Below, piece by piece: positions 14,627 through 52,913 of a DNA stretch of 64,000 nt. This DNA comes from a virus. Position 1 is the first letter of the stretch; the number at the start of each line of letters is the position of its first letter. The notes under the pieces were generated by a model. That model had not been told where the DNA came from, made no database searches, and was given only the letters and a program-made list of their open reading frames with translations. Both the position numbers and the translations under genes were made by a program. The stretch is from the IMG/VR virus record IMGVR_UViG_3300045988_046609. One strand, written 5' to 3'.

Positions 14627-14646
14627 AATATAATAATGTTAGTTTG

Positions 14647-15384: not shown

Positions 15385-15398
15385 AATCTTGATAATTT

Positions 15399-20139: not shown

Positions 20140-20141
20140 CA

Positions 20142-20531
20142 CTATTGTTTTTTGGTAAAAGGAGAAAGTGGTTTTACATCCTCTGGTAGGTTAGCTATAC
20201 TACTTACCTTTGGAAATCCTGTATTTACTTCTTTTACTTTGGTCCTGTATTTAACTATAGGTTTTACTTCTCCTGTAGTTGTTACATTTACAATTGCGTC
20301 CGTTGTTCCATTTACGGATACTTCGTGGGTATTAATATCTACTGATACATTAATCGTATCTATACCCGCGGACTTTTTCTCTTCTGTTTTAGAATGTGTC
20401 ATAGACATTAATTCTAAATATGAAGGAATAACAGGCTGAGCCTGTACTACTTCAGTAGTATTTACTAAATTCCAGCCAATATAAATACTCGCAAAGAATA
20501 TTAGTACTACTGATACGATTCTACTATTCAT
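20142..20531 (-). CDS. Secreted/membrane-anchored hypothetical protein (129 aa), terminates in TAG
   Basis: N-terminal hydrophobic segment IVSVVLIFFASIYIGWNLV. Stop is TAG (cta 20142-20144). Confidence 0.55.
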   Translation of the reverse strand: MNSRIVSVVLIFFASIYIGWNLVNTTEVVQAQPVIPSYLELMSMTHSKTEEKKSAGIDTINVSVDINTHEVSVNGTTDAIVNVTTTGEVKPIVKYRTKVKEVNTGFPKVSSIANLPEDVKPLSPFTKKQ

Positions 20532-22569: not shown

Positions 22570-23136
22570 TTAGTTGTTGTTTAACAATTGTTTTAATTTA
22601 TCTCTAGCTTTATTAAGCTGAGATTTTACTTGAGACTCAGAAAGTCCCAATTGTTCAGAGATTTCTTTGTAAGACAAACCTTGAACAGTTCGTAGTTCAA
22701 TTATATTTCTGTACTTAAAACGAAGTCGCGACAAGGCACTATCTAGAGCATCACTTGTCTCTGCAAAGACATAATCGTCTTCTGGAGAGTAACTGGCCTG
22801 GTTACTCAATTGCAAAGAGTTGGCATCGTCGTCAATCCAATAGTTCGCTTTTTCTTTTTTCATACGTCTGATATAATCAATACTACTATTTATAGCTATA
22901 GTTTTTAACCACATTTCAAATGAAATATTGTTAACATAACTATCTAGCTTACTAAAGGCTTTAATAAATGTAACAGATAATAAATCATCTGCTACATCTC
23001 TATTCTTTACTATATTGTATATAGTAAGATATATAGTTCTTTCAAATCTATTATAAAGCCTTGTGAAGGCAGATTGTTTGCCTTCTCTCGCCTGTTTGAT
23101 CAGTTCAAAAATCTGTTGTTTTTCTAAATCTGTCAT
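22570..23136 (-). CDS. ECF-type sigma-70 family RNA polymerase sigma factor
   Basis: Region 2-like FTRLYNRFERTIYLTIYNIVKNRDVADDLLSVTFIKAF...WLKTIAINSSIDYIRR. Region 4 HTH LSYKEISEQLGLSESQVKSQLNKARDKLKQLL. Confidence 0.85.
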   Translation of the reverse strand: MTDLEKQQIFELIKQAREGKQSAFTRLYNRFERTIYLTIYNIVKNRDVADDLLSVTFIKAFSKLDSYVNNISFEMWLKTIAINSSIDYIRRMKKEKANYWIDDDANSLQLSNQASYSPEDDYVFAETSDALDSALSRLRFKYRNIIELRTVQGLSYKEISEQLGLSESQVKSQLNKARDKLKQLLNNN

Positions 23137-23220
23137 AATTACGGGCTCTAGTAGATATAAGTTTGATAAAAACTTGTATCTATTTCTTAGTGAATATAGG
23201 GCTAATCAAAGCCCTATATC

Positions 23221-23604
23221 CTAGAATGGTACACCTACAATCCAGCGGCAGTACCAATTTATATAGCTCTGATAGAATTGCTTATAAGAATCCCATATAC
23301 ACTCCATGAATTCTCTTTTTAAATCAGGAGATAGAGTATCAGGTGATATCTTATTAATCATTCCACAAACTATTCTTATTCTCACGTCTAAAGTAGATTT
23401 TTTTTCACAGTTTATTTTACATAATACATTAGTATCAAACCAATATATTATATGATTAATTGGTTTAGTATCTCTGAAAGTTTTGTTCTTAACTTCTTTA
23501 TCTCCAAGGTTAAGAAAAATTCTCCAGCTTTCTCTCCAATTAAACTTTTTGTACTGTATTCCCCAAGGAGTATATGCTCGATTAGTTAAACTATATGCGA
23601 CCAT
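23221..23604 (-). CDS. Hypothetical protein (127 aa), terminates in TAG
   Basis: ORF; stop TAG (cta 23221-23223). Confidence 0.5.
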   Translation of the reverse strand: MVAYSLTNRAYTPWGIQYKKFNWRESWRIFLNLGDKEVKNKTFRDTKPINHIIYWFDTNVLCKINCEKKSTLDVRIRIVCGMINKISPDTLSPDLKREFMECIWDSYKQFYQSYINWYCRWIVGVPF

Positions 23605-24049
23605 GTTTCCTTAGTTTATTGATAATCTGTAACACAATAACGTGAGCTTGTGGTATAGACCATTCTGTTTTACTTACGATATACATTTTAGTTGCCCATA
23701 TTCCTTTACCAGGAGTACGAGCATCTTCAATGTATCTTTGTGTGAAATCCTCAAATTGTTCATCGGTTATATCTGGTATTTTAACTCCACGAGTTGATTT
23801 ACGACGAGAGGGTAGATCACAAACCTCTGAGTATTCATATTCAAAGAATATGAATTTATCAGGTTCTGTTAATACTGCTTGAATCTCATAAGATTCTTCA
23901 GTAACCACATGAAATAATCCTTTTTGAATAAGGTCATTCATTACTAACGCATTTGGTATACGTAGCATTGGAGCTTCACCAATAACATTTGCGAGAAGTT
24001 CAAAATCTTCTCCTATGATACGGTAAATTCCAGGATGATTTAGTTTCAT
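23591..24049 (-). CDS. Hypothetical protein (152 aa), terminates in TAG
   Basis: ORF; stop TAG (cta 23591-23593). Confidence 0.55.
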   Translation of the reverse strand: MKLNHPGIYRIIGEDFELLANVIGEAPMLRIPNALVMNDLIQKGLFHVVTEESYEIQAVLTEPDKFIFFEYEYSEVCDLPSRRKSTRGVKIPDITDEQFEDFTQRYIEDARTPGKGIWATKMYIVSKTEWSIPQAHVIVLQIINKLRKHGRI

Positions 24050-24231
24050 AGTTTATTCAATTCTTTTCTAAAGTTATCTACTACACCTGCTACTTCATAT
24101 TGTTTAAGTTCAGGATATAATTTCATAATCTTGGCAATTGCCTCGATGTCTGAGCGGCAAGAGTTTAATAATTTGATAAACTCTGTTTTTTCATGTTTGG
24201 ATTCAAACCAAGCAAAATATCTTATCTGCAT
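24046..24231 (-). CDS. Hypothetical protein (61 aa)
   Basis: ORF with 4-nt overlaps to both neighbours. Confidence 0.45.
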   Translation of the reverse strand: MQIRYFAWFESKHEKTEFIKLLNSCRSDIEAIAKIMKLYPELKQYEVAGVVDNFRKELNKL

Positions 24232-24975: not shown

Positions 24976-25581
24976 ATGCAAAAGTATAAATTACATAGAA
25001 GTTTAATTACTGTTATATGTGATCAATGCGGTAAAGAATATCTTAAACCTTTATCTGAGTATAAAAGAAATAAAGAATTAGGACGTCATAGTTTTTGTTC
25101 TAGATCTTGTTCTTGTAAATATAATTGTGTTCATTCATCTAATAAAATGCTAGAATATTCTAGATCAGAAAAAAATAAACAACGTTTAAGGTCTCTAAAT
25201 GAAATAAAACGCTTAAAACGTCCAGAAGCAGTATTTTCATATTGCCTACGAAACTGTAGAAAACGATATAAGGAGTGTACTATTACATTAGAAGACTTAC
25301 AAGAACAATGGAATAAACAAAAAGGTATATGTCCTTATTCTGGAATATCTTTATTAGTTCCTACATATAAGAAAAATCATAATAATCCAATATATAGTGC
25401 ATCAGTTGATAGAATTGATAGTACTAAAGGTTATATTCCTGGTAATATTCAATTTGTATCTACATGCATTAATTATATGAAGAATACTATGTCTGATGAA
25501 GAAACAAGGTTTATGTGTAAATGTATTGCAGAATATTTCTATTCTGAAGGGACTATTTCATCATCTGTCATTACTGCTTAA
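24976..25581 (+). CDS. HNH-family (beta-beta-alpha-Me) nuclease-like protein with N-terminal Cys-rich zinc ribbon
   Basis: 201-aa ORF on the opposite strand to all neighbours. It has CDQCGK...CSRSC, then ICPYSG...ASVDRIDSTKGYIPGNIQFVSTCINYMKN. No in-frame TAG, TAA stop. Confidence 0.5.
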   Translation: MQKYKLHRSLITVICDQCGKEYLKPLSEYKRNKELGRHSFCSRSCSCKYNCVHSSNKMLEYSRSEKNKQRLRSLNEIKRLKRPEAVFSYCLRNCRKRYKECTITLEDLQEQWNKQKGICPYSGISLLVPTYKKNHNNPIYSASVDRIDSTKGYIPGNIQFVSTCINYMKNTMSDEETRFMCKCIAEYFYSEGTISSSVITA

Positions 25582-26261
25582 GATGTCGGACGCTCTAGCT
25601 GGTTATTAAGGAAACTATATTCCTCCAGTAGTCTCTGCACTTTTATAGAGTGTACTCTATACTTAGCTCAAGATTAGCATGAATAAAGCTAGTTTTGAGC
25701 TTTATTTTTAGCTTTCCTTGAATTCATCCGATTATTCAATATACATTTCTGTATAAGGGGTCCGAATTTCACAAACCCTCGTCTTACAACTGATTCATAG
25801 ACCTAACAGTCAATTGTGACTATGTAGGCGACCAAACCTACATAGCCTTTGGTCTTTTAAATTATTTTACTTATAAGTTTTGATAACTGATCATTTATAG
25901 ACTAGTACAGAAGTATTACTACTCAACATTTGCTATAATGTTTGCCGATTTGATATCATAAGAATGCTATTTGCATAATATACTCTTTGAGTATAGATTC
26001 AATACTATATATTGCGCAATTATTATAATACATCCTCACGATCTTAGGCACTTGATCAGTGGCACGTTTTCTAGTCCAACTCCAGTATTGAATAGTTCTC
26101 ACTATCGTACATTTGTTTGTTTCCTGTCAATTCAGGATGAAGCTGCTTATTGTAGATACCGATGTACATGGATCTCACCATTTGCTTTCAATCTTCTTCG
26201 GATTCTCTATAGAATTAATATCTCTATTATTCAAGTATCTTTCCTGGACCTTGTGTGGCTA

Positions 26262-26726
26262 TTATCTTCCGACGATTGCATCGTCATAACGCCAACTGTA
26301 TCTTGCTTCCGGATACTGGTTGTCGAGTGCATTACAGGTTTCCTCATACCATTTGTCGTTTTCACGCAATGCTTTTACTGCAATGTTTTTGGCTTCTGTT
26401 GCCTGTTTCTGGAACTCAGTAGTAGACAGAGTTGCATTTCCGGATTTGAGATCTTCTACCAGAGCAGTATACTTCTTTAAGTATTCTACTTTGATATTTG
26501 CCTCTTTCTTTGTCTTTTTCATAGACAATACCATACGCTTGTGCGTATAATCAGCCTTGTTTACAATTGAAATTAACTCTTTCGTTAACTGCTCTTTCTT
26601 TGCTTCTGCAACTTTTTTTGCAGCTGCTTCTGCAATTTCAGCAGTTACTACTGCACCATTTTTGATAACATCCTCGATGTTTTCAGTAGACAGAATATCT
26701 GCTACTTTTACTTCTTCTTTTGCCAT
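26262..26726 (-). CDS. Ala/Lys/Glu-rich hypothetical protein (154 aa)
   Basis: Uninterrupted ORF, TAA stop. Confidence 0.6.
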   Translation of the reverse strand: MAKEEVKVADILSTENIEDVIKNGAVVTAEIAEAAAKKVAEAKKEQLTKELISIVNKADYTHKRMVLSMKKTKKEANIKVEYLKKYTALVEDLKSGNATLSTTEFQKQATEAKNIAVKALRENDKWYEETCNALDNQYPEARYSWRYDDAIVGR

Positions 26727-26965
26727 TTCTTGATAATGTTTAAAGATTGATACTATTATTAATTAACACTAAGTTTTAAATTAAAAAAAGAACTGTTCTG
26801 CATATTTGTATACCTTATTTTGCAGATAACCCCTATCCTTCTTCTATCCTATTAGGATTGCCGTTGTATAGCCATTGTACTCTAGTTCTTACGAACTTCC
26901 ATTAGGGTTCTGGTATATTTACAGTTCTTTTGGGTTGATTAGAATCCACCATACTAACAATTTAA

Positions 26966-27148
26966 TTAGTAGTATATAACAGCGGGCAGAGGCTCTGGCG
27001 GAACCTCTTGCTTGTTATTCGTTGTCATTCTGAGTTTACACTCAAGATCACATTCACTACAGTTGATAATATTATCTTGTGTAGGACATTCGTTAGAAAT
27101 CGAATTTGAAGTTTTCATGATCATCTCGACCAAATAAGTGTTTGACAA
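26966..27148 (-). CDS. Small Cys-rich hypothetical protein (start uncertain)
   Basis: ORF overlapping the end of 27093-27500, with CPTQDNIINCSECDLEC. Confidence 0.3.
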   Translation of the reverse strand: MSNTYLVEMIMKTSNSISNECPTQDNIINCSECDLECKLRMTTNNKQEVPPEPLPAVIYY

Positions 27149-27500
27149 TCATAGGCTTACATATTCTTACAAATTCTTTTGCTGTATCTTTGTCTTTGAA
27201 TTCCAAAGAAGTACCGACATAGGCAAAAGCAGCGCCAAGCGCACTGCTAGAATCCAAACGGAGCAAACCGGAAGGTTTTCTGTTATCTGTACAATTCCAA
27301 CCCCATACGTAATATCTTACCTCTCTTGGATCCATTGTTGTAGGTTTCCAGCCTTCATTTAAAGCTTTTGCAATGGTTTCTAACTTGATGAAATTCCTAG
27401 TTTCATCTGTTAATTTGTAGCTTTTATAATTAGCTACAGGACGAAGACCTAGTATTTTACATGCGTCTTCATAAGGTTTTTCTTTACTTAATTTAATCAT
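27093..27500 (-). CDS. Hypothetical protein (135 aa)
   Basis: Uninterrupted ORF. Confidence 0.55.
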   Translation of the reverse strand: MIKLSKEKPYEDACKILGLRPVANYKSYKLTDETRNFIKLETIAKALNEGWKPTTMDPREVRYYVWGWNCTDNRKPSGLLRLDSSSALGAAFAYVGTSLEFKDKDTAKEFVRICKPMIVKHLFGRDDHENFKFDF

Positions 27501-27596
27501 GCCTTTTTGCGATTATAAGGTTCCATTTTCTTATGCTTAGGACGTTTTTTATATTCCGTCTTAGTTTTTACTTCTTTCTCCTTATCTTTTCCCATA

Positions 27597-28082
27597 TTAA
27601 ACAAGTTCTACTACGTCGTTGATTTCTTTTATATACTTACCTATATTCTCTAGATGAAAATCTTTTAGAACATTTATTACAACTGATTTGTTAGTTTTTA
27701 CTCCTACTCCTTTTACTAAGTAAGTTATGACTTCTTTATGATCAGTTCTAAACGTACTGTCATTTACAAAATACTTGATAAACTCAAGTTTAAAGTCTTC
27801 AACAGTATGAAACAATATTGGATCTCCAACTGTTTCATGTATCTTATTACAGAAGGATATCAATTTGTTTTTAAATGTATTTACGCCTTTAAATGTGTTA
27901 TCATCTATATTAGGCATCATTAACTTAAGTAAATCAGTTTCATCGTATGTCTCTACATTAAGAGCATTTGCTCCTTCAGCATCTGTATTAGTACACACAG
28001 TAGATATGATATCTTTAATCAAATCTTCTTCATGTTTATTACTTCGGTAATTACCGTTGATTAAAATTAATACTGCTTTCAT
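27597..28082 (-). CDS. Hypothetical protein (161 aa)
   Basis: Uninterrupted ORF. Confidence 0.55.
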   Translation of the reverse strand: MKAVLILINGNYRSNKHEEDLIKDIISTVCTNTDAEGANALNVETYDETDLLKLMMPNIDDNTFKGVNTFKNKLISFCNKIHETVGDPILFHTVEDFKLEFIKYFVNDSTFRTDHKEVITYLVKGVGVKTNKSVVINVLKDFHLENIGKYIKEINDVVELV

Positions 28083-28084
28083 AA

Positions 28085-28330
28085 TTATTGATTAATTATT
28101 GTTATTTCTATCTCATATTCATCTAACTGATTTTTAATTTCATCAGTAGATAATTCTGAGTTAATTTCAAAGTGTGGATTTAACTCCACTGTTACACCTG
28201 GTTTGCTTCTAGCTATAGGTTTAGCTATGCTTATAGGCATTCCTAGTATGCTTTTTAATCCTAATAGGATTGCCAGAAATTGGTCACTATGCTGTGTTAC
28301 AGAAGTGACATACCTCTTGTTTTTATTCAT
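28085..28330 (-). CDS. Hypothetical protein (81 aa)
   Basis: ORF tightly packed behind 27597-28082. Confidence 0.45.
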   Translation of the reverse strand: MNKNKRYVTSVTQHSDQFLAILLGLKSILGMPISIAKPIARSKPGVTVELNPHFEINSELSTDEIKNQLDEYEIEITIINQ

Positions 28331-28826
28331 TTTACATAGGCTTTAAATTGTTAGTTAATAAAATTGATGACGTTACTCTAGGGTATTCTAGAGTAAGAAA
28401 CACATCTGTTAACGAATGATTCAAGTTATAATACCATAACTTTGAGACTAATACTAAAATGATTTCAAATGCACTTAACGCTTTGTGTTAATAAAGAAAA
28501 TCAAATTTTAACATTACTTGTTAGAGTTTTATTCTATGACTCTCATATGTTTTAGGATTACTCCAGAGTACATACAGAAATAGCTGTCAAACTAAATCTT
28601 AGAACTCACCTGATTTTTACGTCCGCACGATCGTAAGCACAAATACGAGTATTTCTATACTTATCTTATCGTATTTAGTACAGTATAGATATGCACTTAC
28701 TTACGCCCCACAGGCTTGTCATCTTCTGAAGACTAACCTATTCTCACGAACCAGTTAGCTATAAATTCACATTTAACTATTAATCTTAATAAATCTTTGT
28801 TAAATACTACTATGCATATACTTTCT

Positions 28827-29276
28827 CTAACGCTTTAGAGAATCACGAGGATTCTTCACAGAATCTGTTGGGGTAATTATATCACGTTGAATAACTGCGC
28901 CTTTAAGTATATCTTTAAAATGAGATTTGTTTGATTCATATATGGTAACTATGTCTCTATTAGACAATGATGTACCATGAGTCATCAAAATATCAATTAA
29001 GATTGCATCTGGCATTGCTAAAAATATACTATCAATGCGCATTCCCTCTTTTACGTCTTCTCTAAATTTGAGAACTTCCTGTATAGTTAATACAGGTTCT
29101 ACTGCTTTCACAGTATCAATGCAAACTGATTCGTCTTCTGACGTAACAATTTTAGCAATAGGTTCATGACACATAAACACTATTACTCCAGTAGCGATTA
29201 CAGCTGCAATAGCTACTAATAACCACCAAAATCCCTTTGATGATTTTCTTAATACTGGATATTGATTATCTTCCAT
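28827..29276 (-). CDS. Membrane-anchored hypothetical protein (149 aa), terminates in TAG
   Basis: TM segment FWWLLVAIAAVIATGVIVFM. Stop TAG (cta 28827-28829). Confidence 0.5.
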   Translation of the reverse strand: MEDNQYPVLRKSSKGFWWLLVAIAAVIATGVIVFMCHEPIAKIVTSEDESVCIDTVKAVEPVLTIQEVLKFREDVKEGMRIDSIFLAMPDAILIDILMTHGTSLSNRDIVTIYESNKSHFKDILKGAVIQRDIITPTDSVKNPRDSLKR

Positions 29277-32467: not shown

Positions 32468-32776
32468 ATGACAGAAGGATTAAAGAATGACTTTAAGGAC
32501 GGTAAATTAAGATGGGATCTTCTACCGTTAGAAGAGATAGAAGACATTGTTAAAGTATATACTGAAGGAGCTAAGAAATACTCTGATAATAGTTGGCAGA
32601 ATTTAGATAACGGCTACCAACGTTATAAAGCTGCTTTACTTAGGCATTTACTAGAGTATGAGAAAGGTAATAAAATAGATGAAGATACTGGTTGCCAACA
32701 TCTAGCACAAGTAGCATGGAATGCTGTAGCTTTACTTTGGTTAGACAAACACGGAAAAGGTAAAACAATAGAATGA
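32468..32776 (+). CDS. DUF5664-like (dATP/dGTP diphosphohydrolase N-terminal-like) small protein
   Basis: Pattern GKLRWDLLP...GAKKYSDNSWQN...RHLLEY...DEDTGCQHLAQVAWNAVAL, recalled from that family. No search run. Confidence 0.4.
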   Translation: MTEGLKNDFKDGKLRWDLLPLEEIEDIVKVYTEGAKKYSDNSWQNLDNGYQRYKAALLRHLLEYEKGNKIDEDTGCQHLAQVAWNAVALLWLDKHGKGKTIE

Positions 32777-33057
32777 ATACAAAAGTAACTAGAAAACAAA
32801 TAGAAGAAGCTAGAAATTACTTATTTAACATTAATACACAATTAGGTATGACACTATACGATCCAGAATTAGCAGAGATAATCAAGAATAGAGAAGTAGT
32901 AGAAATTCAAGGTAAAAGATACCATATAGAGAGTTCTCCTCTAGGTACTTGTGATGGTTGTTGCTTTATGGGTAAGCAATGCCCACAGAGAGCTGTAACA
33001 TATTGTACTTCAAACGGAGGAAATATTATAGTAGAAGCAGAACCAAATAAGAAATAA
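32773..33057 (+). CDS. Cys-rich hypothetical protein (94 aa)
   Basis: ORF with CDGCCFMGKQCPQRAVTYC. Confidence 0.5.
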   Translation: MNTKVTRKQIEEARNYLFNINTQLGMTLYDPELAEIIKNREVVEIQGKRYHIESSPLGTCDGCCFMGKQCPQRAVTYCTSNGGNIIVEAEPNKK

Positions 33058-33089
33058 TACGTTATAGTTAGAAACTAAGTAAAAAGAAT

Positions 33090-33440
33090 ATGGAAGATAA
33101 AGTACTAGAAACAGTAGTTAATGGAATAGGATGGGGAATGTTGAAAGATGTTTTAATTAAACCTCTTCCACCTACCATGGTTACTAAAGAGTTTACAGAA
33201 CAAATACCTAATGGTAAAGTAGATGAGAATGGATTTAACGAGTATGATACTAAGACTGAGACTAAGGAAGTAGAATCTGATTGGGCTACAGGTATTGTAC
33301 TACAGATTCCTTCACACTTAACAGATGTTAAATTTAAGGTTGGTGATACAGTTGCTTATAATAAGAAGTTTGCAATGTATTTTGATCTGGTAAAAGATAC
33401 CCAATTAGTGAAACCTTATGACATTATTGCCGTTAAGTAA
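33090..33440 (+). CDS. Possible GroES-like co-chaperonin
   Basis: LIKPLP... near the N-terminus and KVGDTVAYNKK...YDIIAV near the C-terminus resemble the Cpn10 pattern. Confidence 0.35.
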   Translation: MEDKVLETVVNGIGWGMLKDVLIKPLPPTMVTKEFTEQIPNGKVDENGFNEYDTKTETKEVESDWATGIVLQIPSHLTDVKFKVGDTVAYNKKFAMYFDLVKDTQLVKPYDIIAVK

Positions 33441-33496
33441 TATAAATTAAGTTTTCATAAAGATAAAAAATTAGTTCGTTTGCAACATTACTAGAA

Positions 33497-33530
33497 GGCT
33501 CGACTTAGGTTGGGCTTTCTTTTTATATAT
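33497..33530 (+). terminator. Probable intrinsic terminator
   Basis: Imperfect G-U-containing stem ggctcgac/gttgggct followed by ttctttttat. Confidence 0.4.
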
Positions 33531-33680
33531 TAATTAATTGTTAACAAATGTTAAAAGCTATTAACAATTATTCACAACTAACGTTTTATAGGCATATGGA
33601 AAAATTAATAGTAATGGGTCTCTGCTTTTCCATGATATGGCTTGCCGTATGGGGGCTCAGTGATAAAAATAAGAAATAAT

Positions 33681-34061
33681 ATGGAATATACATTTAAGAA
33701 AGATTTCGGCTTTTTCAAAGCAAACGATGTACTTACTTGGAATGAAGATATTGATGCCTTTACTATGGATGTAGAGGAGGGTAATAGTTTTAGATCTGCA
33801 ATGATTGATGAACGTACTGTTGAAGATCTGCGTTTGGAAGGTTTACTAGCAGCTAATGCTGAACCTGAAAATGATAAGATCAACACTACTGTTGAATTCA
33901 TTGATTCTTTACTTAAACAATACGAAGATGATTACAAAGAAGTAACACAGAAGTATAAAGAAGGTAAAGTTCAACCGTGTGTTAAAGTAGAAGCTGAAAC
34001 AGTTTATTTTAACCTTACTAAGGTATTAAATAAGATTAAAGAGGAATTGACGAATGAATAA
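33681..34061 (+). CDS. Hypothetical protein (126 aa from MEYTF)
   Basis: Track ORF 33642-34061. Internal ATG preferred because of the A-rich leader. Confidence 0.55.
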   Translation: MEYTFKKDFGFFKANDVLTWNEDIDAFTMDVEEGNSFRSAMIDERTVEDLRLEGLLAANAEPENDKINTTVEFIDSLLKQYEDDYKEVTQKYKEGKVQPCVKVEAETVYFNLTKVLNKIKEELTNE

Positions 34062-34446
34062 ATTGGTTAAGAAAGTATCTAAAACCGATTTGTATAAAGA
34101 ATTCTTAAAAAGCCTTAATGGTGTATTAGACCTTACTAATAGGGAGTTAGAATTATTAGCTACGTTTATAGACTTAGATATTAATACTCCTAAACTCCCT
34201 AATATTAGTAAGAATGTAATAAGTGCTGAAAATAGGAAGTACATTAAGCGTACTCTAGGTATTACTCCTGATAATTTAAGTAGATACATAGCTAAATTCA
34301 AGAGTTAGGGTATACTAGTAAAAGGCGAAATAGAAGACGAGGTAAAAGTAAATAAAGTATTAATACCTGAGATAATCGGTGATAGAGTACAAATTACAAT
34401 CATATTAAGATTAAATAAAGATGAAAATGAGATCATTCCTGCTTGA
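34054..34446 (+). CDS. Hypothetical protein; 84 aa if TAG 34306 is a stop, 130 aa if it is read through to TGA 34444
   Basis: The frame stays open past TAG 34306-34308 for 45 more codons and then overlaps the next start. Confidence 0.5.
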
Positions 34447-34807
34447 GGCAGGAACAATAATAGCATGGAAGAAGTATCCGTATATCAAGAAACTGTGGAA
34501 TAAGATTAGAGGTAAACAGCTACCGTTTAACATGTTTACTATAGTACCTAGTCGAACAGAGTTGCTTACCTCGGATGATATGAAAGATATAGAAATATAT
34601 GAACCTATACGTAAGTATAATAAACAAGAACAATCTAAGATAAGCGTCCTTGCTAAGGACACTTTATATAGTAGCGATTGGGTAGATGTAGCATCACTAA
34701 TAAATATAGTAAGACCTAACACGTTATTAGGACCTATTACATTAGCTACATGTAAATATTATAAGAAAGTAGAGTGGAATGAGAAATTAGACGAGTATAT
34801 ATACTAA
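34421..34807 (+). CDS. Hypothetical protein (128 aa)
   Basis: Uninterrupted ORF. Confidence 0.55.
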   Translation: MKMRSFLLEAGTIIAWKKYPYIKKLWNKIRGKQLPFNMFTIVPSRTELLTSDDMKDIEIYEPIRKYNKQEQSKISVLAKDTLYSSDWVDVASLINIVRPNTLLGPITLATCKYYKKVEWNEKLDEYIY

Positions 34808-34985
34808 ATTAAGTAACAAGTATAACATTCCATATCAAGTTATTGAAGTGATATGTAATAGCCCGTTTAAATTTACTAATCAGATCATAACAGATTTAGA
34901 TCCTAAACCGGTAATGTTTGCTTACTTAGGGAAGATCAAGATAAAGAAGAGATATGAAGAAGACGCCAAAAATAGACATGTATGA
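34779..34985 (+). CDS. Possible small protein (68 aa) with TAG at codon 4
   Basis: ATG AGA AAT TAG then an open frame to TGA 34983-34985. It fills the otherwise empty 34808-34953 gap. Confidence 0.3.
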
Positions 34986-35388
34986 TCCTCAGATATACCC
35001 TAGAAGACTATACGTAGCGGTAGAAGTTGAAAACTTACAGGAGCATTTCAAGTTATTAAGTACAGATGGTAAAGTTGAATTTACTGATGAGGAGGCTAAA
35101 GTAGACTTCCATTGTAGTAAATATGCAATGGTAACTCGTTCTGTAATAAACAAGGAAGATGGCAAATATGGTGTATTAATTCAAGTACCTGATTTAGATG
35201 AGATGCAACAGTCTGATATATCACACGAGGCAGTACATGCTGCAGACTATATATATCAAGAACTAGGGATGTATACAGAAGATTTCAAGGATGGTAACGA
35301 AGGTTATGCTTACTTAGTAGGATGGATAGCTGGTTGTGTTAGTAAGAGTATAATTAAAGCAAAACAAAATGACAATAGAAGAGAGTAA
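34954..35388 (+). CDS. Hypothetical protein with HExxH motif (possible metallopeptidase)
   Basis: SHEAVHAAD motif in a 144-aa ORF. Confidence 0.45.
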   Translation: MKKTPKIDMYDPQIYPRRLYVAVEVENLQEHFKLLSTDGKVEFTDEEAKVDFHCSKYAMVTRSVINKEDGKYGVLIQVPDLDEMQQSDISHEAVHAADYIYQELGMYTEDFKDGNEGYAYLVGWIAGCVSKSIIKAKQNDNRRE

Positions 35389-35773
35389 GGCGATGTGGAA
35401 CATCGAGAAGAGTAATGTTGACCAAGTTAACTTTACTAAAGGGATGAAGGCTTTATATAAAGCCGTGGATAAAGTTATCGAAAATGGTATTATTACTTAT
35501 GAAGACTTCACTAACGATACTATTGATGAACTTACTACCTTAATGGTGCAAGAAGGTAAAGGAGAGATTGGTGCTATGGATAGAGCAGAACAATTAGATC
35601 TAATGTGTAAGCGTTTAACTGAGAAATATGAAGAAAAATATAACACCAGAGAGCTTGGAACAGGAATTACAGAACTTTCAACAGATAGTGCAGAAGTATC
35701 AGACCCTGAAAAACTACACGAATCCGAATGTATCACTGAGGAGAGCGTTAGCGATAATACAGAGATTAAATAA
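35369..35773 (+). CDS. Acidic hypothetical protein (134 aa)
   Basis: Uninterrupted ORF. Confidence 0.5.
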   Translation: MTIEESKAMWNIEKSNVDQVNFTKGMKALYKAVDKVIENGIITYEDFTNDTIDELTTLMVQEGKGEIGAMDRAEQLDLMCKRLTEKYEEKYNTRELGTGITELSTDSAEVSDPEKLHESECITEESVSDNTEIK

Positions 35774-35806
35774 AGAAAAATATTTAGGTTATAGAATTGA
35801 TTGATT

Positions 35807-36178
35807 ATGGTAAAATATTGCGCAAAAGTAAATAAGGCTAATATCTACAAAGTAGATTTTGAGAAAGAAGAGTTCGAGTCTGTTGGTTACTTCAGTGATA
35901 TTGACTATCGTTATATTATACCAGAAGATGGTCTCTTAGAGATAACTGATAAGAATGGTAATAAGAAATCTATTGAAGTAAAACAGTATGACATGATACT
36001 TAAGATGTATAGTACTACTGGTGACTATGACGATAAAGAGTTTATAGTGATAGATAATCCAGAATTGAAAGACTATTATCGTAGAAGAATTGAGAGACTG
36101 GAAGCTGATAGAAAAGCGAGAGAAGTAGCAATGAATGAGAAATGTTGTTGTGATGGTGAACCTGTAGGAGCAGTATAA
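35807..36178 (+). CDS. Hypothetical protein (~123 aa)
   Basis: Track ORF 35801-36178 starts at TTG; ATG at 35807. Confidence 0.5.
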   Translation: MVKYCAKVNKANIYKVDFEKEEFESVGYFSDIDYRYIIPEDGLLEITDKNGNKKSIEVKQYDMILKMYSTTGDYDDKEFIVIDNPELKDYYRRRIERLEADRKAREVAMNEKCCCDGEPVGAV

Positions 36179-36483
36179 TGGAAAAGATACTAGTAAATAG
36201 ATATGGAGAAGCTATTAGTTTTAACACTGATCTAAATGCTATTACTCCAATGTTAGCCAACATTGATTGCCATATATACAAAGCTGAAACAGACGGGCAA
36301 GTAATTACTTCGGATGAAGTAATAGACATTAAAAAAGGAGAATTCGCTCTTGTTTGTGTATGCTGGAATAATGGTAAGAATGTTGTAAAGGCCATTGTAA
36401 TATCAGATCCGGCAGCCATACACGACTTAGGAGAATGGTACGAATTTGAATTAAATAAGTATAAGTCAAATGAATCTCGTTGA
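36178..36483 (+). CDS. Hypothetical protein (101 aa)
   Basis: Uninterrupted ORF with ATG overlapping the previous stop. Confidence 0.5.
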   Translation: MEKILVNRYGEAISFNTDLNAITPMLANIDCHIYKAETDGQVITSDEVIDIKKGEFALVCVCWNNGKNVVKAIVISDPAAIHDLGEWYEFELNKYKSNESR

Positions 36484-37003
36484 TATAGTAGGAGGTAAGG
36501 TTGTAATACACCCAGATCTGTATTTCATACCAGCATTCAAAAGACTATACGAACATGATACTTCGGAAGACAAAGTTCATCAAGAGCTTGTTATTACTTA
36601 TATAGTACTTATGCACAAATGGAGTAGTCCATATAAGAAGAGTATGGATGCTCATACTAGAGAAATAAGGCTCAAAGAACAAGTATTTGAAGATCCAAGC
36701 TATGAACTTACTGAGGAAGAAAAGGTAGCTGAACAAGAGTACATAGATTGGCAAAATACTAGAATACTAAAGATGCTAGACGCTCAAATGAACAAATTAG
36801 ACTCAGTCACTAAGTGGTATGAAGAGTCATTAGATGATTGTTTGGATGAGAAGAAGATCAAAGATCTACTAGCTGGAATGGGTTCTACAGCTAATACTAT
36901 TAAGAGTATAGAAGCATTAAAATCTATGGTTCAAGCTGAGGAATTAACTATGGGTAAAGTAAAGGGAGATGCCAAGGTTAATCCTTATGAGTTGGCAGGA
37001 TAA
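36470..37003 (+). CDS. Hypothetical protein (177 aa)
   Basis: Uninterrupted ORF. Confidence 0.55.
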   Translation: MNLVDIVGGKVVIHPDLYFIPAFKRLYEHDTSEDKVHQELVITYIVLMHKWSSPYKKSMDAHTREIRLKEQVFEDPSYELTEEEKVAEQEYIDWQNTRILKMLDAQMNKLDSVTKWYEESLDDCLDEKKIKDLLAGMGSTANTIKSIEALKSMVQAEELTMGKVKGDAKVNPYELAG

Positions 37004-37063
37004 TACAGTTAAAGACAACCAAAATTAAACAATACGTTTATTATAATATAATTTTTGAATAAA

Positions 37064-37204
37064 ATGAAAAAGCAAGTAAATATTGTAATTGATATGAATA
37101 AAACCCAAGAAGAAGTATGGCAGCAGATGGAAGAAGCATATGCAGTTTTACATAAACTTGGTCAAAGAAAACCTTGGTATAGGAGACTGTTCTCTTGGTT
37201 TTGA
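37064..37204 (+). CDS. Possible small protein (46 aa)
   Basis: ATG 37064 to TGA 37202-37204 (MKKQVNIVIDMNKTQEEVWQQMEEAYAVLHKLGQRKPWYRRLFSWF). Below the track length cutoff. Confidence 0.3.
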   Translation: MKKQVNIVIDMNKTQEEVWQQMEEAYAVLHKLGQRKPWYRRLFSWF

Positions 37205-37249
37205 TATTTAAAAGTCTGACAGGGACAGACATTAAATATTCCCTGGCAC

Positions 37250-37352
37250 GGGAGAGTGGCGGAATGGTATACGGCAGTAGATTGACGGAAGCGCCCTAAA
37301 GTCGTCATTAACAAAGCTCTTGGGTTTGAAAGTTCGAGTCTTTCCTCTCCCA
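37250..37352 (+). tRNA. Atypical 103-nt tRNA-like gene (Leu-like D arm, no canonical anticodon arm)
   Basis: Perfect 7-bp acceptor GGGAGAG/CTCTCCC and T arm GAAAG-TTCGAGT-CTTTC. D region TGGCGGAATGGTATACGGC resembles bacterial tRNA-Leu. The central 53 nt offer only a TGACG/CGTCA stem around a 15-nt loop GAAGCGCCCTAAAGT. Confidence 0.5.
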
Positions 37353-37360
37353 CTTAATAT

Positions 37361-37435
37361 TCCCCTATGGTGTAATGGTAACACTCGGAGCTCTAACCTC
37401 CGTATTGCCCGTTCGAGTCGAGGCTGGGGGGACCA
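37361..37435 (+). tRNA. Amber suppressor tRNA, anticodon CUA (Gln-like body), CCA encoded
   Basis: TCCCCTA-TG-GTGT-AATGGTA-ACAC-T-CGGAG-CTCTAAC-CTCCG-TATT-GCCCG-TTCGAGT-CG(A)GGC-TGGGGGG-A-CCA. Anticodon CTA at 37393-37395. The D arm ATGGTGTAATGGTAACAC resembles tRNA-Gln. Confidence 0.85.
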
Positions 37436-37610
37436 ATAAGGGTAAGTTTGCAGCGGCTGTGAGTAGATCCGAACTTCTGAAAGATGATAAGAAGACTCTC
37501 TACTTACCTTTAACTTATTTATTAAAGAGGTCAATTCACGGTTTGGGTAATGCGCAAGATATCTGAGGCGTTGGCATTTTATCTTACGAACCTCCTTACT
37601 CTACATTATC

Positions 37611-37892
37611 ATGAGAAAGTTTGAAATATGGACAGGGTATTATTCTGTAGATGGTTATTCACCATGCGAACCCGAGTTACACGCTGTGATTGAGGCGTTG
37701 GATTTTAAGTCAGCTTGCATGAAATATGAACTACGGAGTAGACTTGATAGTATCTAGTTGCAAGAAAAATAGGGTTATGTGTGCAAGCAGTCATATGTGG
37801 ACTTCTATAACCCGGATACACAAACAAACAGTTGGATTGGTAAGTACTATCCATCGAAAGAAGAAGCGCAAAAATCGTTTGAAAAACAGTGA
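37611..37892 (+). CDS. Small hypothetical protein (93 aa) with two in-frame TAG, embedded in the tRNA cluster
   Basis: ATG 37611 to TGA 37890-37892, open if the two TAG are read through (MRKFEIWTGYYSVDGYSPCEPELHAVIEALDFKSACMKYELRSRLDSI-Q-LQEK-Q-GYVCKQSYVDFYNPDTQTNSWIGKYYPSKEEAQKSFEKQ). Confidence 0.5.
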
Positions 37893-38022
37893 AGTATGGC
37901 GCGCATACAACGTAACTTCCTAAGTCACTAGCTATGTAAGGAATCTCATAGTTAACACAGCTCATGATGGACCTAATCGTAAGTAGACAAGTTTGACAGA
38001 GTTCTTGTATAAACTGTAGTAC

Positions 38023-38095
38023 TGTGGGATGGAGCAGTTGGTAGCTCGTTAGGCTCATAACCTAAAGGTCGTTGGTTCAAGTCCAACTCCCGCAA
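38023..38095 (+). tRNA. tRNA with CAU anticodon (elongator Met or Ile2-type)
   Basis: TGTGGGA-TG-GAGC-AGTTGGTA-GCTC-G-TTAGG-CTCATAA-CCTAA-AGGTC-GTTGG-TTCAAGT-CCAAC-TCCCGCA-A. Confidence 0.85.
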
Positions 38096-38111
38096 CTTAA
38101 GAAGAAATAAT

Positions 38112-40163
38112 ATGGTAGATTTCAACAAATAGATAAAAAATAGCGATAAGTTTAGAGAACCAGCCTTGTAGTTTATAGCTACAGGGCATTATTGTTCATA
38201 TCCGATTGGAACAACAGAATATTTCCAATATTGGGATGAGCAAAAACGTAGATGTATCGACGGTTATACTTCTGATGATGGTGATTTCATCAGCGGGTAT
38301 AACTATTTTTATTTAAACTTTTGTCCTATATCAAGAATTGTAAATGAAACAATACTTAATAGCGATGGTAGTTATACTGTAAAACGAAAGAATAAAGTAA
38401 CATTTCCAGACTTTTGGGATTATGATTACTACTTTTTTACTGCATTTAATGATGCAGAAGACCAAGGAAAACACATGTGTGTACTAAAATCACGTAGAAA
38501 AGGTTTTAGTTATAAAGGTGGTGCAATGTTATGTCGTAATTACTATTTAGTACCTAACTCAAAATCATTTGTATATGCTGCTAATAAGCAATACTTAACA
38601 GAAGATGGTATTCTTACTAAGGCATGGGACTATATGGACTTTATAGATAAGAATACTGCATGGGGTAAGAAGAGGTCGGTTAACACATAGATGCGCAAAC
38701 GTGCTGGATTTTTTAGTAAAGACGAATATGGTAATGTAGTAGAATTAGGATATAAATCAGAAATAATTGGAGTTACTTTAAAGGATAATCCTAGTTCGAT
38801 TCGTGGTAAGAAAGCAAACTTAATACTATTTGAAGAAGGTGGTAGTATGAGCGAGCTATCTGCAGCTTGGCAAATTGCAAGACCTTCTGTTGAAGTAGAT
38901 GGTGTAGCATTTGCATCTATGCTTATATGGGGTACTGGTGGTGATGAAGATAGCAAATTCTCAACACTAAAGGACATGTTCTATAATCCAGAAGGCTATA
39001 ACTGTATAGGATTCGATAATATATGGGATGAAACTGCTACTAGTAAATAGTGTGGATTCTTTGTCCCACAATATACTAATATGGATTTAAGAGATAAAAG
39101 TGGTAATCGTTTATATATGGACGAAGATGGAAATACTTTATATAAACCAGCCCTATAGTACATATTAGATGAAAGAAAAAAAGTAATAGAAAATGCTACA
39201 AATTCTACAGCTATTGATAGATATGTTGCAGAACGACCAATAACTCCAGCAGAAGCAATGCTTGAATTTAATGGTAATATATTCCCTAAAAAAGAACTAC
39301 AAGAACAACTAGCTAGAATAAGGACTAATAAAAGTCTAAGTAATCACAAACAGGTTGGTGATTTAGTTTGGGAAAAAGATGGCACTTTAAAATGGGTTAT
39401 TAAAAAACATGGAGACATAACTCATTATCCTTTAAAGAAGGACGATGATCCAACCGGTTCTATTGTTATATGGGAACATCCTGTAAAGGACGCTCCGTAG
39501 GGCTTATACATATTAGGAGTCGATCCATATGACCACGACTAGTCTGGTACTAATTCACTAGGTTCTACTTTTGTATACAAACGTTTCTAGAGTTTCGAAA
39601 ACTATTATGATATTATTGTTGCTGAGTATACTGGCCGCCCATCTACAGCTGAAGAGTATTATGAAAATTTACGCAAGTTAGCCGTATATTATAATGGCAG
39701 AATCATGTACGAGAATGAGCGCAAAGGCTTGTTCCCTTATTTTACTGCTAAGCATTGCGACTATTTGCTGGCTGACCAACCCGATATTATTTCCGATGTA
39801 GTTGGTAATTCCAAAGTACAAAGAAAAAAAGGTTGCCACATGAATAAATAGATCAAACAATGGGGAGAAGGCTTGATTAAGGACTGGTTAAATGAAGAAT
39901 AGGCTCCTGGTAAAAAGAACCTGCACAACATATTGTCAGAGCCGCTATTAGAAGAGCTTATAAGCTATAATGATACAGGAAACTTTGATAGAGTCATGGC
40001 GTTGATGCAGGTGATGATTTATAGAGAGTAGCTCTATAATGTGAAGGTTAAAGAGAAGAAAAAAGAGAATAAAAATAGAGTACTATTTGAAGGCCCTATT
40101 TTTACTCAAGAATGGTATCGTGACGACGATACTATTGATAATATAAAAGCATATATGTTTTAA
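38112..40163 (+). CDS. terL: Terminase large subunit (683 aa with 11 in-frame TAG)
   Basis: Track ORFs 38475-38690, 38691-39050 and 39258-39500 share one frame, open from ATG 38112 to TAA 40161-40163. Motifs YNYFYLNFCPI, LILFEEGG and ILGVDPYDHD are typical of TerL ATPase/nuclease regions. Confidence 0.8.
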
Positions 40164-46063: not shown

Positions 46064-46639
46064 ATGAAAGAGAAAGAAGTCTGGAAAGATATTCCAGGAT
46101 ATCCTGATTACTAGATTAGTAGTCTTGGTAGAGTAAAGTCTCTATAGCATACTGTGTTTCATTCACCTTCTAGAAGATTTCCAAATGGTAGGTAGGTAAC
46201 GTATAAAGAAAAAATTTTAGTTCCAGCTATAGAAGGAGGAGGTTATTGCTTTGTAGTCTTATATAAAGATAAAGTAAAAAGAAGTTATAGAATACACAGA
46301 TTGGTTGCATAGATGTTTTTAAATAATCCAAATAATTATGATTAGGTTAATCATAAAGATGAAGACAAATTAAATAACTGTGTAGATAATCTAGAATGGT
46401 GTGATGCTAAGTATAATGTTAATTATGGCACTGGAAAATATAGGAAAACTTTAAGTAGACGTATTCCAGTATTACAATTTACACTTGACGGAGTATTCAT
46501 AAGAGAACACGATAGTGCTACTGAAGCGGCATACTCTTTAGGATTAAAATAGTTTTATGCTAGAGACATTCTTAGAGCATGTAGTGGACGATATAAAACA
46601 GTAAAAAATTTTATTTGGAAATTTAAAAATAATAACTAA
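46064..46639 (+). CDS. NUMOD4-HNH homing endonuclease (191 aa, 6 in-frame TAG)
   Basis: Reads MKEKEVWKDIPGYPDY-Q-ISSLGRVKS... and VNHKDEDKLNNCVDNLEW when TAG is read as sense. Confidence 0.7.
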
Positions 46640-46644
46640 AATAT

Positions 46645-48114
46645 ATGGATAACAATATATTAAATAATTTGGTTTTGTACAAAGGCAAGTGGTTCAGTGA
46701 TCTGATTGATACTGCTAAAATTTCAGCAGCTTCACAATAGAATCCGTATCAGGTTGCTACCGTATTGTCTTATGTATTTGGTACTAAAGATAATGGTTAC
46801 AACACTTCTTTGGATATGCTCACTGGCGGTCTTGGTAATGTAATGACCATTGATCAGCCTAGTTGGGAGTGGAATGTAATGATTGATGCTGATAGAGCAG
46901 TAACAATTAGAGATGCTAAATGGAATGGTGCAGCTATCACAGATTCTTCTACAGCTGGTTTGGGTAATACTCCAATCATGTTGTGGTTAGAAGATAATTG
47001 GTTCGGACCTACCGCTGTATTGGAATTTGATAACAAGGACTTCCAAGTACGCGTTGCAGGTGCTCCTTACCAAGATGGTAATCTGTGGGTTTATACCTGT
47101 TATATTGCAGACGGCCAGCCTACTTCTTATATTCCTGCTGAATACCTGAAACCTGGTTGCCAAGTGTCACGTCTAGCTTCTGCTGTAGAAGAATATAGTG
47201 AAGAAGGTGATATCCTGAACTATAATACTGCATTTAAGATGCGTAATTATTTAACTACAATTCGTATCAATTATGATATTACTGGTTCAGCTTATTCTAC
47301 AGTAATGGCTATTGCATTGCAGGATCCTAAGACAGGTAAGAAATCTTATCTGTGGGCAGACTACCAAGAATGGGTTGCTATGAGAGAGTGGTATAAGAGA
47401 TGTGAAAGAATGTTGGTTTACATGAAGAACAATGTAAACAAAGATGGTACTTGTAATCTGAAAGGTACTAACGGGCGTCCTGTATTTATGGGTGCTGGTT
47501 TGTTGGAACAGATTGCTCCGTCTAACAAACGTTACTATACTAGACTTACTGCAGAATTGTTAGAAGACTTCTTATTTGATCTGTCATATAATGTACTTGG
47601 TACTAATGAACGTAAGTTTGTTGCATTGACCGGTGAGATGGGTATGAGAGAATTTGATAGAATTCTGAAAGAAAAGATGGTTAACATGAATCTTATTGAC
47701 ACAGTATTTGTTACAGGTTCTGGCGATAATCTTACTTTTGGTGGTCAGTTTAAGACTTACAAAATGACTAATGGTATTGAATTGACTCTGAAGTACTTCC
47801 CGTTGTATGATGATGTTACTTATAGTCGTCAATTACATCCTGTTACGTTGAAACCTCTAGAATCATATCGTATGACATTCTTAGATCTTGGTAGACGTGA
47901 TGGTGAGGCTAACATCGTAAAAGTAGTTCGTAAAGATCGCGAGTTTGTTACTTGGTATACTGGTGGTGCAGTTGCTCCGTCTGGTTATGCAAATTCTAAG
48001 AATACTCTGAGATCTAATGGTAAGGATGGTTATACTGTATTCTTCCTTGGAGAGATGGGTATTATGATTAGAGATCCCCGCGCATGTGGCGAGCTCATAA
48101 TGGAAGCTGAATAA
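46645..48114 (+). CDS. Putative major capsid protein (489 aa, 1 TAG)
   Basis: ATG 46645 is in frame with ORF 46765-48114 through TAG 46738-46740. Size, position in the head module and very low TAG density fit. Family assignment is my inference. Confidence 0.55.
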
Positions 48115-52700: not shown

Positions 52701-52913
52701 ATGTGCACATGTAATGAATTAAAATAGTTCTTATATGTTGCTCTAGACTTCTAGGGTAACATCGTAGTAATATCAGATTATGCTAGTTATCCTAATGTAG
52801 AAGTTGATCCAAAAGATAACTAGATTACTTTTGATGAACCAGATGTTAAAGACTTTATTAAACCAGATACAAAATTAATTTTTTAGAATGGAATACACAA
52901 AATTATTAGGTAA
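52701..52913 (+). CDS. Small hypothetical protein (70 aa, 4 TAG)
   Basis: ATG 52701 open to TAA 52911-52913 with TAG read through. Confidence 0.35.

Follow-up and report, generated by a model that had tools for sequence, protein, structure and literature searches.

What reads the TAG codons that lie in frame in the late genes of the virus recorded in IMG/VR as IMGVR_UViG_3300045988_046609, and which amino acid do they encode? The whole stretch of DNA analysed here, referred to as the window, comprises 64,000 nt and carries at 37361-37435 a tRNA gene with the anticodon CUA, termed tRNA(CUA) in the following. An earlier note, made from the letters alone, had described it as a phage-encoded amber suppressor with a Gln-like body that decodes about 130 in-frame TAG codons. 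Our results suggest, with a probability of roughly 0.8, that tRNA(CUA) is a functional amber suppressor by which the infected Bacteroidota cell reads UAG as glutamine in the late genes of the phage.

The gene is composed of the following parts, all on the plus strand.

37361-37435: tRNA(CUA) gene, 72 nt plus the encoded CCA, identified by sequence, ARAGORN, Rfam and a family model
37361 onwards: acceptor 5' strand TCCCCTA, then TG, read from the sequence; U1 is 37361
D arm GTGT/AATGGTA/ACAC, then T, with a 7-nt D loop
Anticodon stem CGGAG/CTCCG enclosing the loop CTCTAAC
37393-37395: anticodon CTA, which reads UAG, in a loop with C32, U33, A37 and C38
Variable loop TATT, 4 nt
T arm GCCCG/TTCGAGT/CG-A-GGC
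37421: extra A, bulged out of the 3' T-stem strand and flanked by pairs 52-62 and 51-63; an insertion in the Rfam alignment
Acceptor 3' strand TGGGGGG
37432: discriminator A73
37433-37435: encoded CCA

All 21 cloverleaf pairs form in the window copy (7, 4, 5 and 5 bp), with two G·U pairs in the acceptor, one bulged base and the invariant tRNA nucleotides all kept (U8, G10, G18G19, U33 and T54 to A58, including T54-Psi55-C56 and A58). The G·U pairs are U1·G72, formed by T37361 with G37431, and U6·G67. What the earlier note had read directly from the letters, namely a cloverleaf with the loop CTCTAAC, an encoded CCA end, a bulged A in the T stem and a U1-G72 wobble, was confirmed in every point. 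ARAGORN, which it had named as a check, called a tRNA with the anticodon cta at 37360-37435 and found no other CUA tRNA in the 64 kb.

With 90.6% identity to crAssphage cr56_1 and about 80% to cr60_1, cr109_1 and cr113_1, the window can be classified by its sequence as a crAss-like phage (Crassvirales, Suoliviridae, Loutivirinae, Buchavirus-like), and the identity to cr56_1 bears out that the tRNA is phage-encoded. The arrangement around the gene is as follows.

4286-32208, minus strand: replication/early block, 20 tabulated open reading frames (ORFs) without in-frame TAG, compatible with the standard code
32468-37204, plus strand: eleven small genes upstream of the tRNA, without in-frame TAG
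37214-37245, plus strand: leader with the topology of an H-type pseudoknot, in which S1 is GTCTG/CAGAC and S2 is CAGGGA/TCCCTG, the 5' strand of S2 lying in the S1 loop
37250-37352, plus strand: 103-nt tRNA-like RNA, 8 nt upstream of tRNA(CUA), 35.1 bits with the Rfam tRNA model and a 32-nt insertion
38023-38096, plus strand: tRNA with the anticodon CAU (Met or Ile2 type), called by ARAGORN, 67.2 bits in Rfam, the last gene before TerL
38112-40163, plus strand: terminase large subunit (TerL), the first recoded gene, with 11 TAG; homologues are annotated as TerL, and a search gave 6451 homologues
38112-64000, continuing at 1-4233, plus strand: late TAG-recoded block with TerL, portal, HNH endonuclease, major capsid protein and tail proteins

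On the plus strand, the order is therefore TAG-free genes, leader, 103-nt tRNA-like RNA, tRNA(CUA), a spacer of 587 nt, tRNA(CAU) and TerL, which begins 677 nt downstream of tRNA(CUA). The late block holds 121 (121-122) in-frame TAG in 17 plus-strand genes with 9138 codons, where TAG makes up 30% of the Gln-type codons; 11 are found in the portal gene and 21 in a tail gene of 1788 codons (52888-58251, plus strand). Outside the late block, none was found in the 5437 + 1291 codons of 31 tabulated ORFs (20 on the minus strand, 11 upstream on the plus strand). None of the tabulated genes ends in TAG, the stops of the late block being TAA (15) and TGA (1). The suppressor thus sits exactly where TAG-free genes give way to TAG-rich late genes on the same strand. 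As to the decoding function proposed earlier, an amber suppressor does lie beside the recoded late block; the number of codons was corrected from about 130 to 121-122.

Some single genes deserve mention with respect to their TAG content. A NUMOD4/HNH homing endonuclease gene (46064-46639, plus strand), which directly precedes the major capsid gene, is the most TAG-dense gene of the window (7 in 192 codons), so that code 15 applies to this mobile gene as well. The major capsid gene (46645-48114, plus strand; Crass_capsid, E = 1e-222) has only 1 TAG in 490 codons. Three further minus-strand ORFs defined from stop to stop contain one TAG each (19648-20190, 23582-24052 and 28800-29276); they may be early genes ending in TAG that are read through once the suppressor is present, or spurious.

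The amino acid encoded by TAG was addressed with TerL and portal, which were written with X for TAG and compared by tblastn with fetched loci (58 and 35 loci with matches, respectively). Predicted proteins from databases, showing Q at 8 of the 11 TerL TAG sites, were set aside, since gene callers may already read TAG as Q; because of this possible circularity, codons were compared as DNA. At the 22 TAG positions of the window, homologues show TAG or CAA/CAG, and Gln is the majority sense residue at 16 of them, the other positions being variable Lys, Glu, Arg or Ile sites. When 20 TAG columns were scored against substitution profiles, derived for every amino acid from these alignments, Gln reached a log-likelihood of -37.4, ahead by 30 units of Glu (-67.7) and Lys (-81.7), and Tyr, Leu, Ser and Trp fitted far worse, though they are likewise one mutation away from TAG. 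These comparisons indicate that TAG encodes glutamine in the late genes (genetic code 15). They agree with a study in which TAG was assigned to Gln by LC-MS/MS in two crAss-like phages (PMC9523058).

In the tail-fibre-like proteins encoded at 52888-58251 and 61530-64000 (plus strand), collagen-type G-X-Y runs carry TAG at Y or X, e.g., GP[TAG]GAQGLRGERGFQGPQGEQGPPG; such positions would be in keeping with Gln.

The body of the tRNA was compared with cellular tRNAs, for which the 14-mer TATGGTGTAATGGT of the D arm was scanned in one genome per prokaryotic species. It was found in 93 cellular tRNAs, 81 of which are tRNA-Gln (51 UUG and 30 CUG, nearly all from Bacteroidota), 11 tRNA-His and 1 tRNA-Gly, and the attribution of the D arm to tRNA-Gln in the earlier note therefore proved right. 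The window shares with Bacteroidota tRNA-Gln the D arm GTGT-AATGGTA-ACAC (family form GTGT-AATGGTA-RCAC), U8, G9 and G10, furthermore U1 (44 of 48 hosts), A73 (46 of 48), a 4-nt variable loop (TATT occurs in hosts) and the T loop TTCGAGT. Of the Gln-like body as a whole, it is the D arm, U1 and A73 that stood up, the remainder being only 55-68% identical and no closer to tRNA-Gln than to tRNA-His. Overall identity was discarded as a test of Gln-likeness, as it does not discriminate (mean of about 39 of 71 positions for Gln and His alike). The term "Gln-like" therefore seems right for the identity-bearing parts, and the comparison points to an old phage suppressor lineage rather than to a recent anticodon point mutant of a host gene. 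In addition, the CCA end encoded in the window tRNA is encoded in only 5 of 70 host tRNA-Gln.

That the gene belongs to a conserved family was seen when IMG/VR was scanned for the D arm and the anticodon loop, which yielded 77 viral contigs with 19 unique tRNA(CUA) variants, 18 of them with the loop CTCTAAC. In the family alignment, 96% of the cells pair and 13 of the 21 pairs have changed on both sides. None of 500 shuffles matched the observed pairing and covariation, and controls with slid partners paired at only about 50%. The alignment used for covariation was fitted to the model, and a separate hand-registered count agrees. Unpaired cells are concentrated at pair 1-72. A MAFFT alignment of the 19 variants was dropped for the pair counts, because in three sequences it had moved the extra base to the 3' end; it was replaced by the hand-registered alignment and model-based realignment. 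tRNA(CUA) is thus a real tRNA gene of a covarying phage family.

The general tRNA model of Rfam (RF00005) gave 33.1 bits at 37362-37430 with a one-base insertion in the 3' T stem, marginally above the gathering threshold of 29 (E = 0.0046 for the whole window, 8.6e-5 for 1.2 kb searched). A family covariance model of the 19 related phage tRNA(CUA) scored the window copy with 80.5 bits (E ~1e-23) and assigned the bulged A37421 a column of its own. The earlier note had looked to covariance-model scoring to tell a working gene from a pseudogene; this test is itself weak, the 33.1 bits being low yet above 29, and it is conservation and covariation that argue for function.

Regarding the bulge, the exact tRNA sequence of the window was found, bulge included, in three further assemblies with flanks 97.7-98.6% identical, and a form that is identical across four assemblies is not an assembly error. 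The variant L005/L029 keeps the same bulged register in a diverged sequence, where A49-U65 replaces G49-C65 in a compensatory manner. The bulged cloverleaf has a folding energy of -22.4 kcal/mol, compared with -26.2 with the A deleted and -21.3 for the unbulged homologue of cr60_1. The T stem of the window copy consists of G-C pairs only, so that the bulged cloverleaf stays as stable as that homologue, and the T stems of the bulged variants are G/C-rich in general. The fold printed by ARAGORN itself, starting one base earlier with mismatches in the T stem (G·G, C·A) and in the acceptor (U·U), reached only -11.4 kcal/mol vs -22.4; it was also ruled out by the covariation of 49-65, which suits the bulged register only.

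Several observations weigh against a functional suppressor charged with glutamine. In comparison with host tRNA-Gln, the window has U1·G72 in place of U1-A72 (44 of 48) or A-U (4 of 48), C2-G71 in place of G2-C71 (46 of 48) and U6·G67 in place of U6-A67. C32, A37 and C38 stand where hosts have U32, G37 and U38, and the anticodon loop CUCUAAC has only U33, C34 and U35 in common with the host loop UUYUGGU (anticodon YUG). Hosts have a regular 5-bp T stem, with a bulge in 0 of 70, and the overall identity of 55-68% to host tRNA-Gln is no higher than that to tRNA-His sharing the D arm. In the relatives, the TAG columns contain 11.6% Lys and 12.7% Glu, compared with 4% and 8% at true Gln columns. 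Furthermore, the general tRNA model gives just 33.1 bits, unbulged relatives reaching 51-57, the minimum free energy of tRNA(CUA) is no better than that of shuffled sequence, and about one third of the genome lies beyond the window and may hold another decoder.

Part of these observations would also fit a working amber suppressor that is charged with another amino acid, most plausibly Lys or Glu, or with a mixture, leaving TAG ambiguous. C2-G71 and C3-G70, which replace the host-conserved G2-C71, and the elevated Lys and Glu in the TAG columns speak for it, and E. coli charges amber suppressors with foreign bodies with Gln or Lys. We consider this improbable, since Gln fits the columns by far best, the excess of Lys and Glu is expected from AAG and GAG, the single-base neighbours of TAG, the D arm, U1 and A73 match host tRNA-Gln, and proteomics found Gln in related phages (PMC9523058).

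Slightly less probable still is a decaying, non-functional tRNA copy, with the true UAG decoder encoded in the unseen third of the genome, formed by the neighbouring tRNA-like RNA or supplied as a host factor. The borderline Rfam score, the bulge, the two acceptor G·U pairs and an energy no better than shuffles would suit decay, as would the location in a probable recombination hot spot, where the closest genome cr56_1 has a different tRNA(CUA). Decay is hard to reconcile with a bulged form that is identical in four assemblies and is kept, with a compensatory change, in a diverged variant, with a G/C stem that offsets the bulge (-22.4 vs -21.3 kcal/mol for cr60_1) and with intact invariant nucleotides. 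It also has to account for the fact that this is the sole CUA tRNA in 64 kb and occupies a syntenic suppressor slot. The neighbouring tRNA-like RNA lacks an anticodon arm, and relatives have CUG in place of its "CUA".

A pyrrolysine tRNA, as which ARAGORN labels the gene ("tRNA-Pyl"), is excluded by anatomy and practically negligible: the label follows from the anticodon cta alone, tRNA-Pyl has a small D loop without G18G19, a 6-bp anticodon stem, a 3-nt variable loop and a T loop without T-Psi-C, tRNA(CUA) has a normal D loop with G18G19, a 5-bp anticodon stem, a 4-nt variable loop and the T loop TTCGAGT, the TAG columns match Gln and not Lys-like residues, and the scanned ORFs included no pyl genes.

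A glutamine-inserting suppressor could act as follows. tRNA(CUA) would be cut from a transcript that also bears the upstream tRNA-like RNA, its CCA end being already encoded, and would then likely be charged with Gln by the glutaminyl-tRNA synthetase (GlnRS) of the host. Bacteroidetes possess GlnRS, mostly without GatCAB (PMC3927822), and make Gln-tRNA directly by means of this enzyme, which makes host GlnRS the likely charging route. The features kept from host tRNA-Gln that GlnRS may recognize are the whole D arm with G10, U1, A73, C34 and U35. The GlnRS of E. coli has to open the 1-72 pair and recognizes G10, C/U34, U35, G36 as well as the acceptor end; supE, for its part, is a tRNA-Gln with the anticodon CUA, and amber suppressors with foreign bodies are notorious for receiving Gln. 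With its weak U1·G72 pair, tRNA(CUA) should be an easier substrate for GlnRS, which may offset the lost G36. Once charged, tRNA(CUA) would compete with release factor 1 (RF1) at UAG. For the tail gene 52888-58251 with its 21 TAGs, the full-length yield is p^21, and suppression must therefore be near-complete. Late proteins would appear only after tRNA(CUA) has accumulated. A timing model of this kind, in which late and lysis proteins are not made until the suppressor accumulates, has been published (10.1101/2021.08.26.457843). The position of the tRNA, ahead of TerL and behind a conserved leader, is compatible with this model or with co-transcription with the late genes. The bulged A would be tolerated, its cost being offset by the all-G/C T stem; a tuning of the affinity for EF-Tu is speculative.

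Searches of the 20 early ORFs (Pfam) and of 10 upstream ORFs (PHROGs) gave no release factor, aminoacyl-tRNA synthetase or amidotransferase. A scan for sigma-70 promoters and terminators around the tRNAs gave nothing above shuffles, with a consensus that is ill-suited to Bacteroidota or phage polymerases.

Traits specific to the suppressors were sought by comparing the 19 variants with 76 unique viral sense tRNA-Gln having the same D arm and with 70 cellular tRNA-Gln (48 unique), contrasts that may partly reflect one clade and not repeated events, the sequences being kin.

Pair 1-72 not Watson-Crick: suppressors 16/19 (U·U 10, U·G 4, A·C 2), viral sense 7/76, host 0/48
Extra base in the 3' T-stem strand: suppressors 5/19, viral sense 0-1/76 (one doubtful), host 0/70
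CCA encoded: suppressors 12/19, viral sense 5/76, host 5/70

The bulged variants are the window type, L005/L029, L053/L078, L021 and L076, on contigs of about 100, 115 and 180 kb. With the Rfam model, unbulged suppressors reached 50.7-57.0 bits, and the bulged ones 33.1 (window), 37.9, 32.8 and 48.0, one being unreported; the bulge costs about 20 bits. Surveys of crAss-like phages applied a tRNAscan-SE cut-off of 35 bits (PMC7886860), and a detectable suppressor was described in only about 40% of TAG-recoded phages (10.1101/2021.08.26.457843). Bulged suppressor genes are therefore plausible false negatives of threshold-based tRNA scans.

Whether the odd features, i.e., the weak or open 1-72 pair and the recurrent extra nucleotide after position 62, are adaptations of the phage suppressor lineage and not noise appears doubtful to us, although it is somewhat more conceivable than any of the alternative readings of the gene. 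The site of the T-stem bulge lies on the face bound by EF-Tu. If they were adaptations, the open 1-72 end would restore charging by GlnRS after the loss of G36, and the bulge could retune the affinity for EF-Tu or hide the tRNA from host nucleases directed against tRNAs. The suppressor, the pseudoknot leader and the 103-nt tRNA-like RNA, which are co-conserved, may then also function as one unit, and scores near or below the cut-off would explain part of the TAG-recoded phages reported without a detectable suppressor.

Suppressor tRNAs in crAss-like phages, late TAG recoding, the assignment to Gln and the timing model are all known from published work, and homologues of the gene are present in RefSeq. 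Our comparison drew on Yutin et al. 2021, Borges et al. 2021/22 and Peters et al. 2022, suppressor tRNAs of crAss-like phages with late-gene recoding being described in PMC7886860. Known suppressors of TAG-recoded crAss-like phages (Suoliviridae/delta group) include KNV49_gt02 of cr60_1 and KNV47_gt01 of cr53_1, annotated in RefSeq as tRNA-Gln. Like tRNA(CUA) of the window, they occupy the slot just upstream of TerL, share the D arm, the loop CTCTAAC, A73 and the encoded CCA, and, as in crAss-like phages, adjoin a late block full of in-frame TAG. The tRNAs are nevertheless only about 74% identical, though the flanking tRNA-like gene is 96-98% identical. The window has C2-G71 in place of G2-C71 and U1·G72 in place of a U1·U72 mismatch, and the window alone reveals a 7-nt D loop, the extra T-stem A and a Rfam score lower by about 20 bits.

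At the site corresponding to 37250-38096 of the window, cr56_1 (L003, 2555-3449) contains an unrelated 80-nt tRNA(CUA) with a long variable loop and a homing endonuclease, which replace the tRNA-like gene, the Gln-type tRNA(CUA), the spacer and tRNA(CAU) of the window. The spacer itself (37436-38022, 587 nt) is put together like a mosaic from pieces that cr53_1 and cr60_1 also have; it revealed no Rfam match and folds less stably than shuffles. From these sequence comparisons, the suppressor slot appears to be a recombination hot spot with cassette-like replacement of tRNAs.

Classical Gln amber suppressors are supE of E. coli (glnV44, tRNA-Gln CUA) and psu2 of T4, derived from the T4 tRNA-Gln. 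In both, a body of the tRNA-Gln type reads UAG in competition with RF1 and is charged by GlnRS although position 36 has changed, as is presumed for the tRNA of the window. supE and psu2 are laboratory point mutants with partial suppression, whereas the gene of the window is wild-type, fixed and long diverged, its anticodon loop and acceptor end have been remodelled, and essential genes would depend on it. A single bulged T-stem nucleotide in stop-codon-suppressing tRNAs is also known from the 8/4 tRNA-Sec and SelC* tRNA-Cys, where the bulge A51a is dispensable for function (Mukai et al. 2017, PMC5389517). Those tRNAs have an 8/4 layout, a long variable arm and the bulge in the 5' strand (51a), in contrast to the 7/5 layout of the window with its bulge in the 3' strand after 62.

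The shell of the 103-nt tRNA-like RNA upstream of tRNA(CUA) is of the tRNA-Leu type in its acceptor, D and T arms: GGGAGAG pairs with CTCTCCC over all 7 bp of the acceptor, the D arm reads GCGGAATGGTA, the T arm is likewise perfect, and A73 is present. The CCA is not encoded, and a 51-nt core stands where a tRNA would have its anticodon and variable arms. In each of 23 viral loci the RNA immediately precedes tRNA(CUA) on the 5' side; its copies there are 91-98% identical, and its T stem bears two compensatory changes. The core has CCCUAAAG. As a second UAG decoder the RNA was rejected: a search of the core for a 5-7-5 hairpin found none, and the CUA is CUG in four related loci. The intron mode of ARAGORN offered an unconvincing "tRNA-Phe with 8-nt intron" with another acceptor stem, and a search for antisense targets of the core within the window found one 12-mer only, at chance level. 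Both helices of the leader further upstream covary over five sequence types, e.g., GTCCA/TGGAC with CGGGGA/TCCCCG or ACCC/GGGT with CGTGGA/TCCACG. The leader also precedes tRNA(CUA) in cr53_1 and cr56_1, both without the tRNA-like gene; possible roles are those of a promoter, a processing signal or a switch that controls expression of the suppressor.

A second tRNA-like match (14647-14763, minus strand; 117 nt, 33.8 bits in Rfam) shows a type-I shell with an A/U-rich insertion of about 43-50 nt in the anticodon loop, which carries UUCGUAUAU three times. It lies between the ORF 12677-14638, a DNA polymerase according to the annotation of relatives, and the ORF 14773-15405; it recurs in cr56_1 with 100% identity, and cr60_1, cr109_1 and cr113_1 lack it.

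tRNA-Leu-like shells (AGTCAGG-TG-GCGGAATGGTAGACGC ... ACAGGTTCGAATCCTGT-CCTGACT-A) are common on phage contigs, with cores of 30-70 nt that are unrelated to each other. A scan for the tRNA-Leu-type D arm gave about 36 of 116 matches without an ARAGORN call, and Rfam scores the shells with 34-43 bits as "tRNAs" of 94-128 nt. Inside tRNA clusters, arrays with identical shells and different cores were observed, six in 3.2 kb (L209, about 370-3480, minus strand) and four in 1.1 kb (L268), and further shells on L221, L247 and L308. They look like natural tRNA-scaffolded RNAs. Bacterial leucyl-tRNA synthetase ignores the anticodon, so that the shells might even be leucylated. A literature search on tRNA-shell RNAs found no relevant description, and they seem more unusual than the suppressor itself.

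The minus-strand block encodes a primase, a DnaB-like helicase, AAA ATPases, a phosphoesterase and a sigma factor. The latter, of the sigma-70 family (ECF-like, regions 2 and 4; 22570-23202, minus strand), lies within the TAG-free block and is a candidate for steering host RNA polymerase to later phage promoters. In a gene-poor stretch of the same strand (25529-28733), a cluster of structured RNAs was identified.

25529-25784, minus strand: group I intron, 85.1 bits
26040-26137, minus strand: RAGATH-20, 101.8 bits
26786-26942, minus strand: RAGATH-9, 138.7 bits
28608-28733, minus strand: Hatchet ribozyme, 92 bits

As the principle is published and experimentally supported, the finding mainly confirms it and places one more example. 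What is new lies at a fine level and is modest: the recurrent bulge, the open 1-72 pair, the encoded CCA and the cassette-like replacement. For this phage, taking tRNA(CUA) and code 15 into account would allow the terminase, portal, capsid and tail genes to be annotated in full length and not as fragments. For the family, the open 1-72 pair, the recurrent T-stem bulge and the encoded CCA provide testable details on how such phages may hijack host GlnRS and EF-Tu, and the scores of bulged genes (33-48 bits or unreported, vs 51-57 for regular ones) give a concrete reason why suppressors may have been under-counted.

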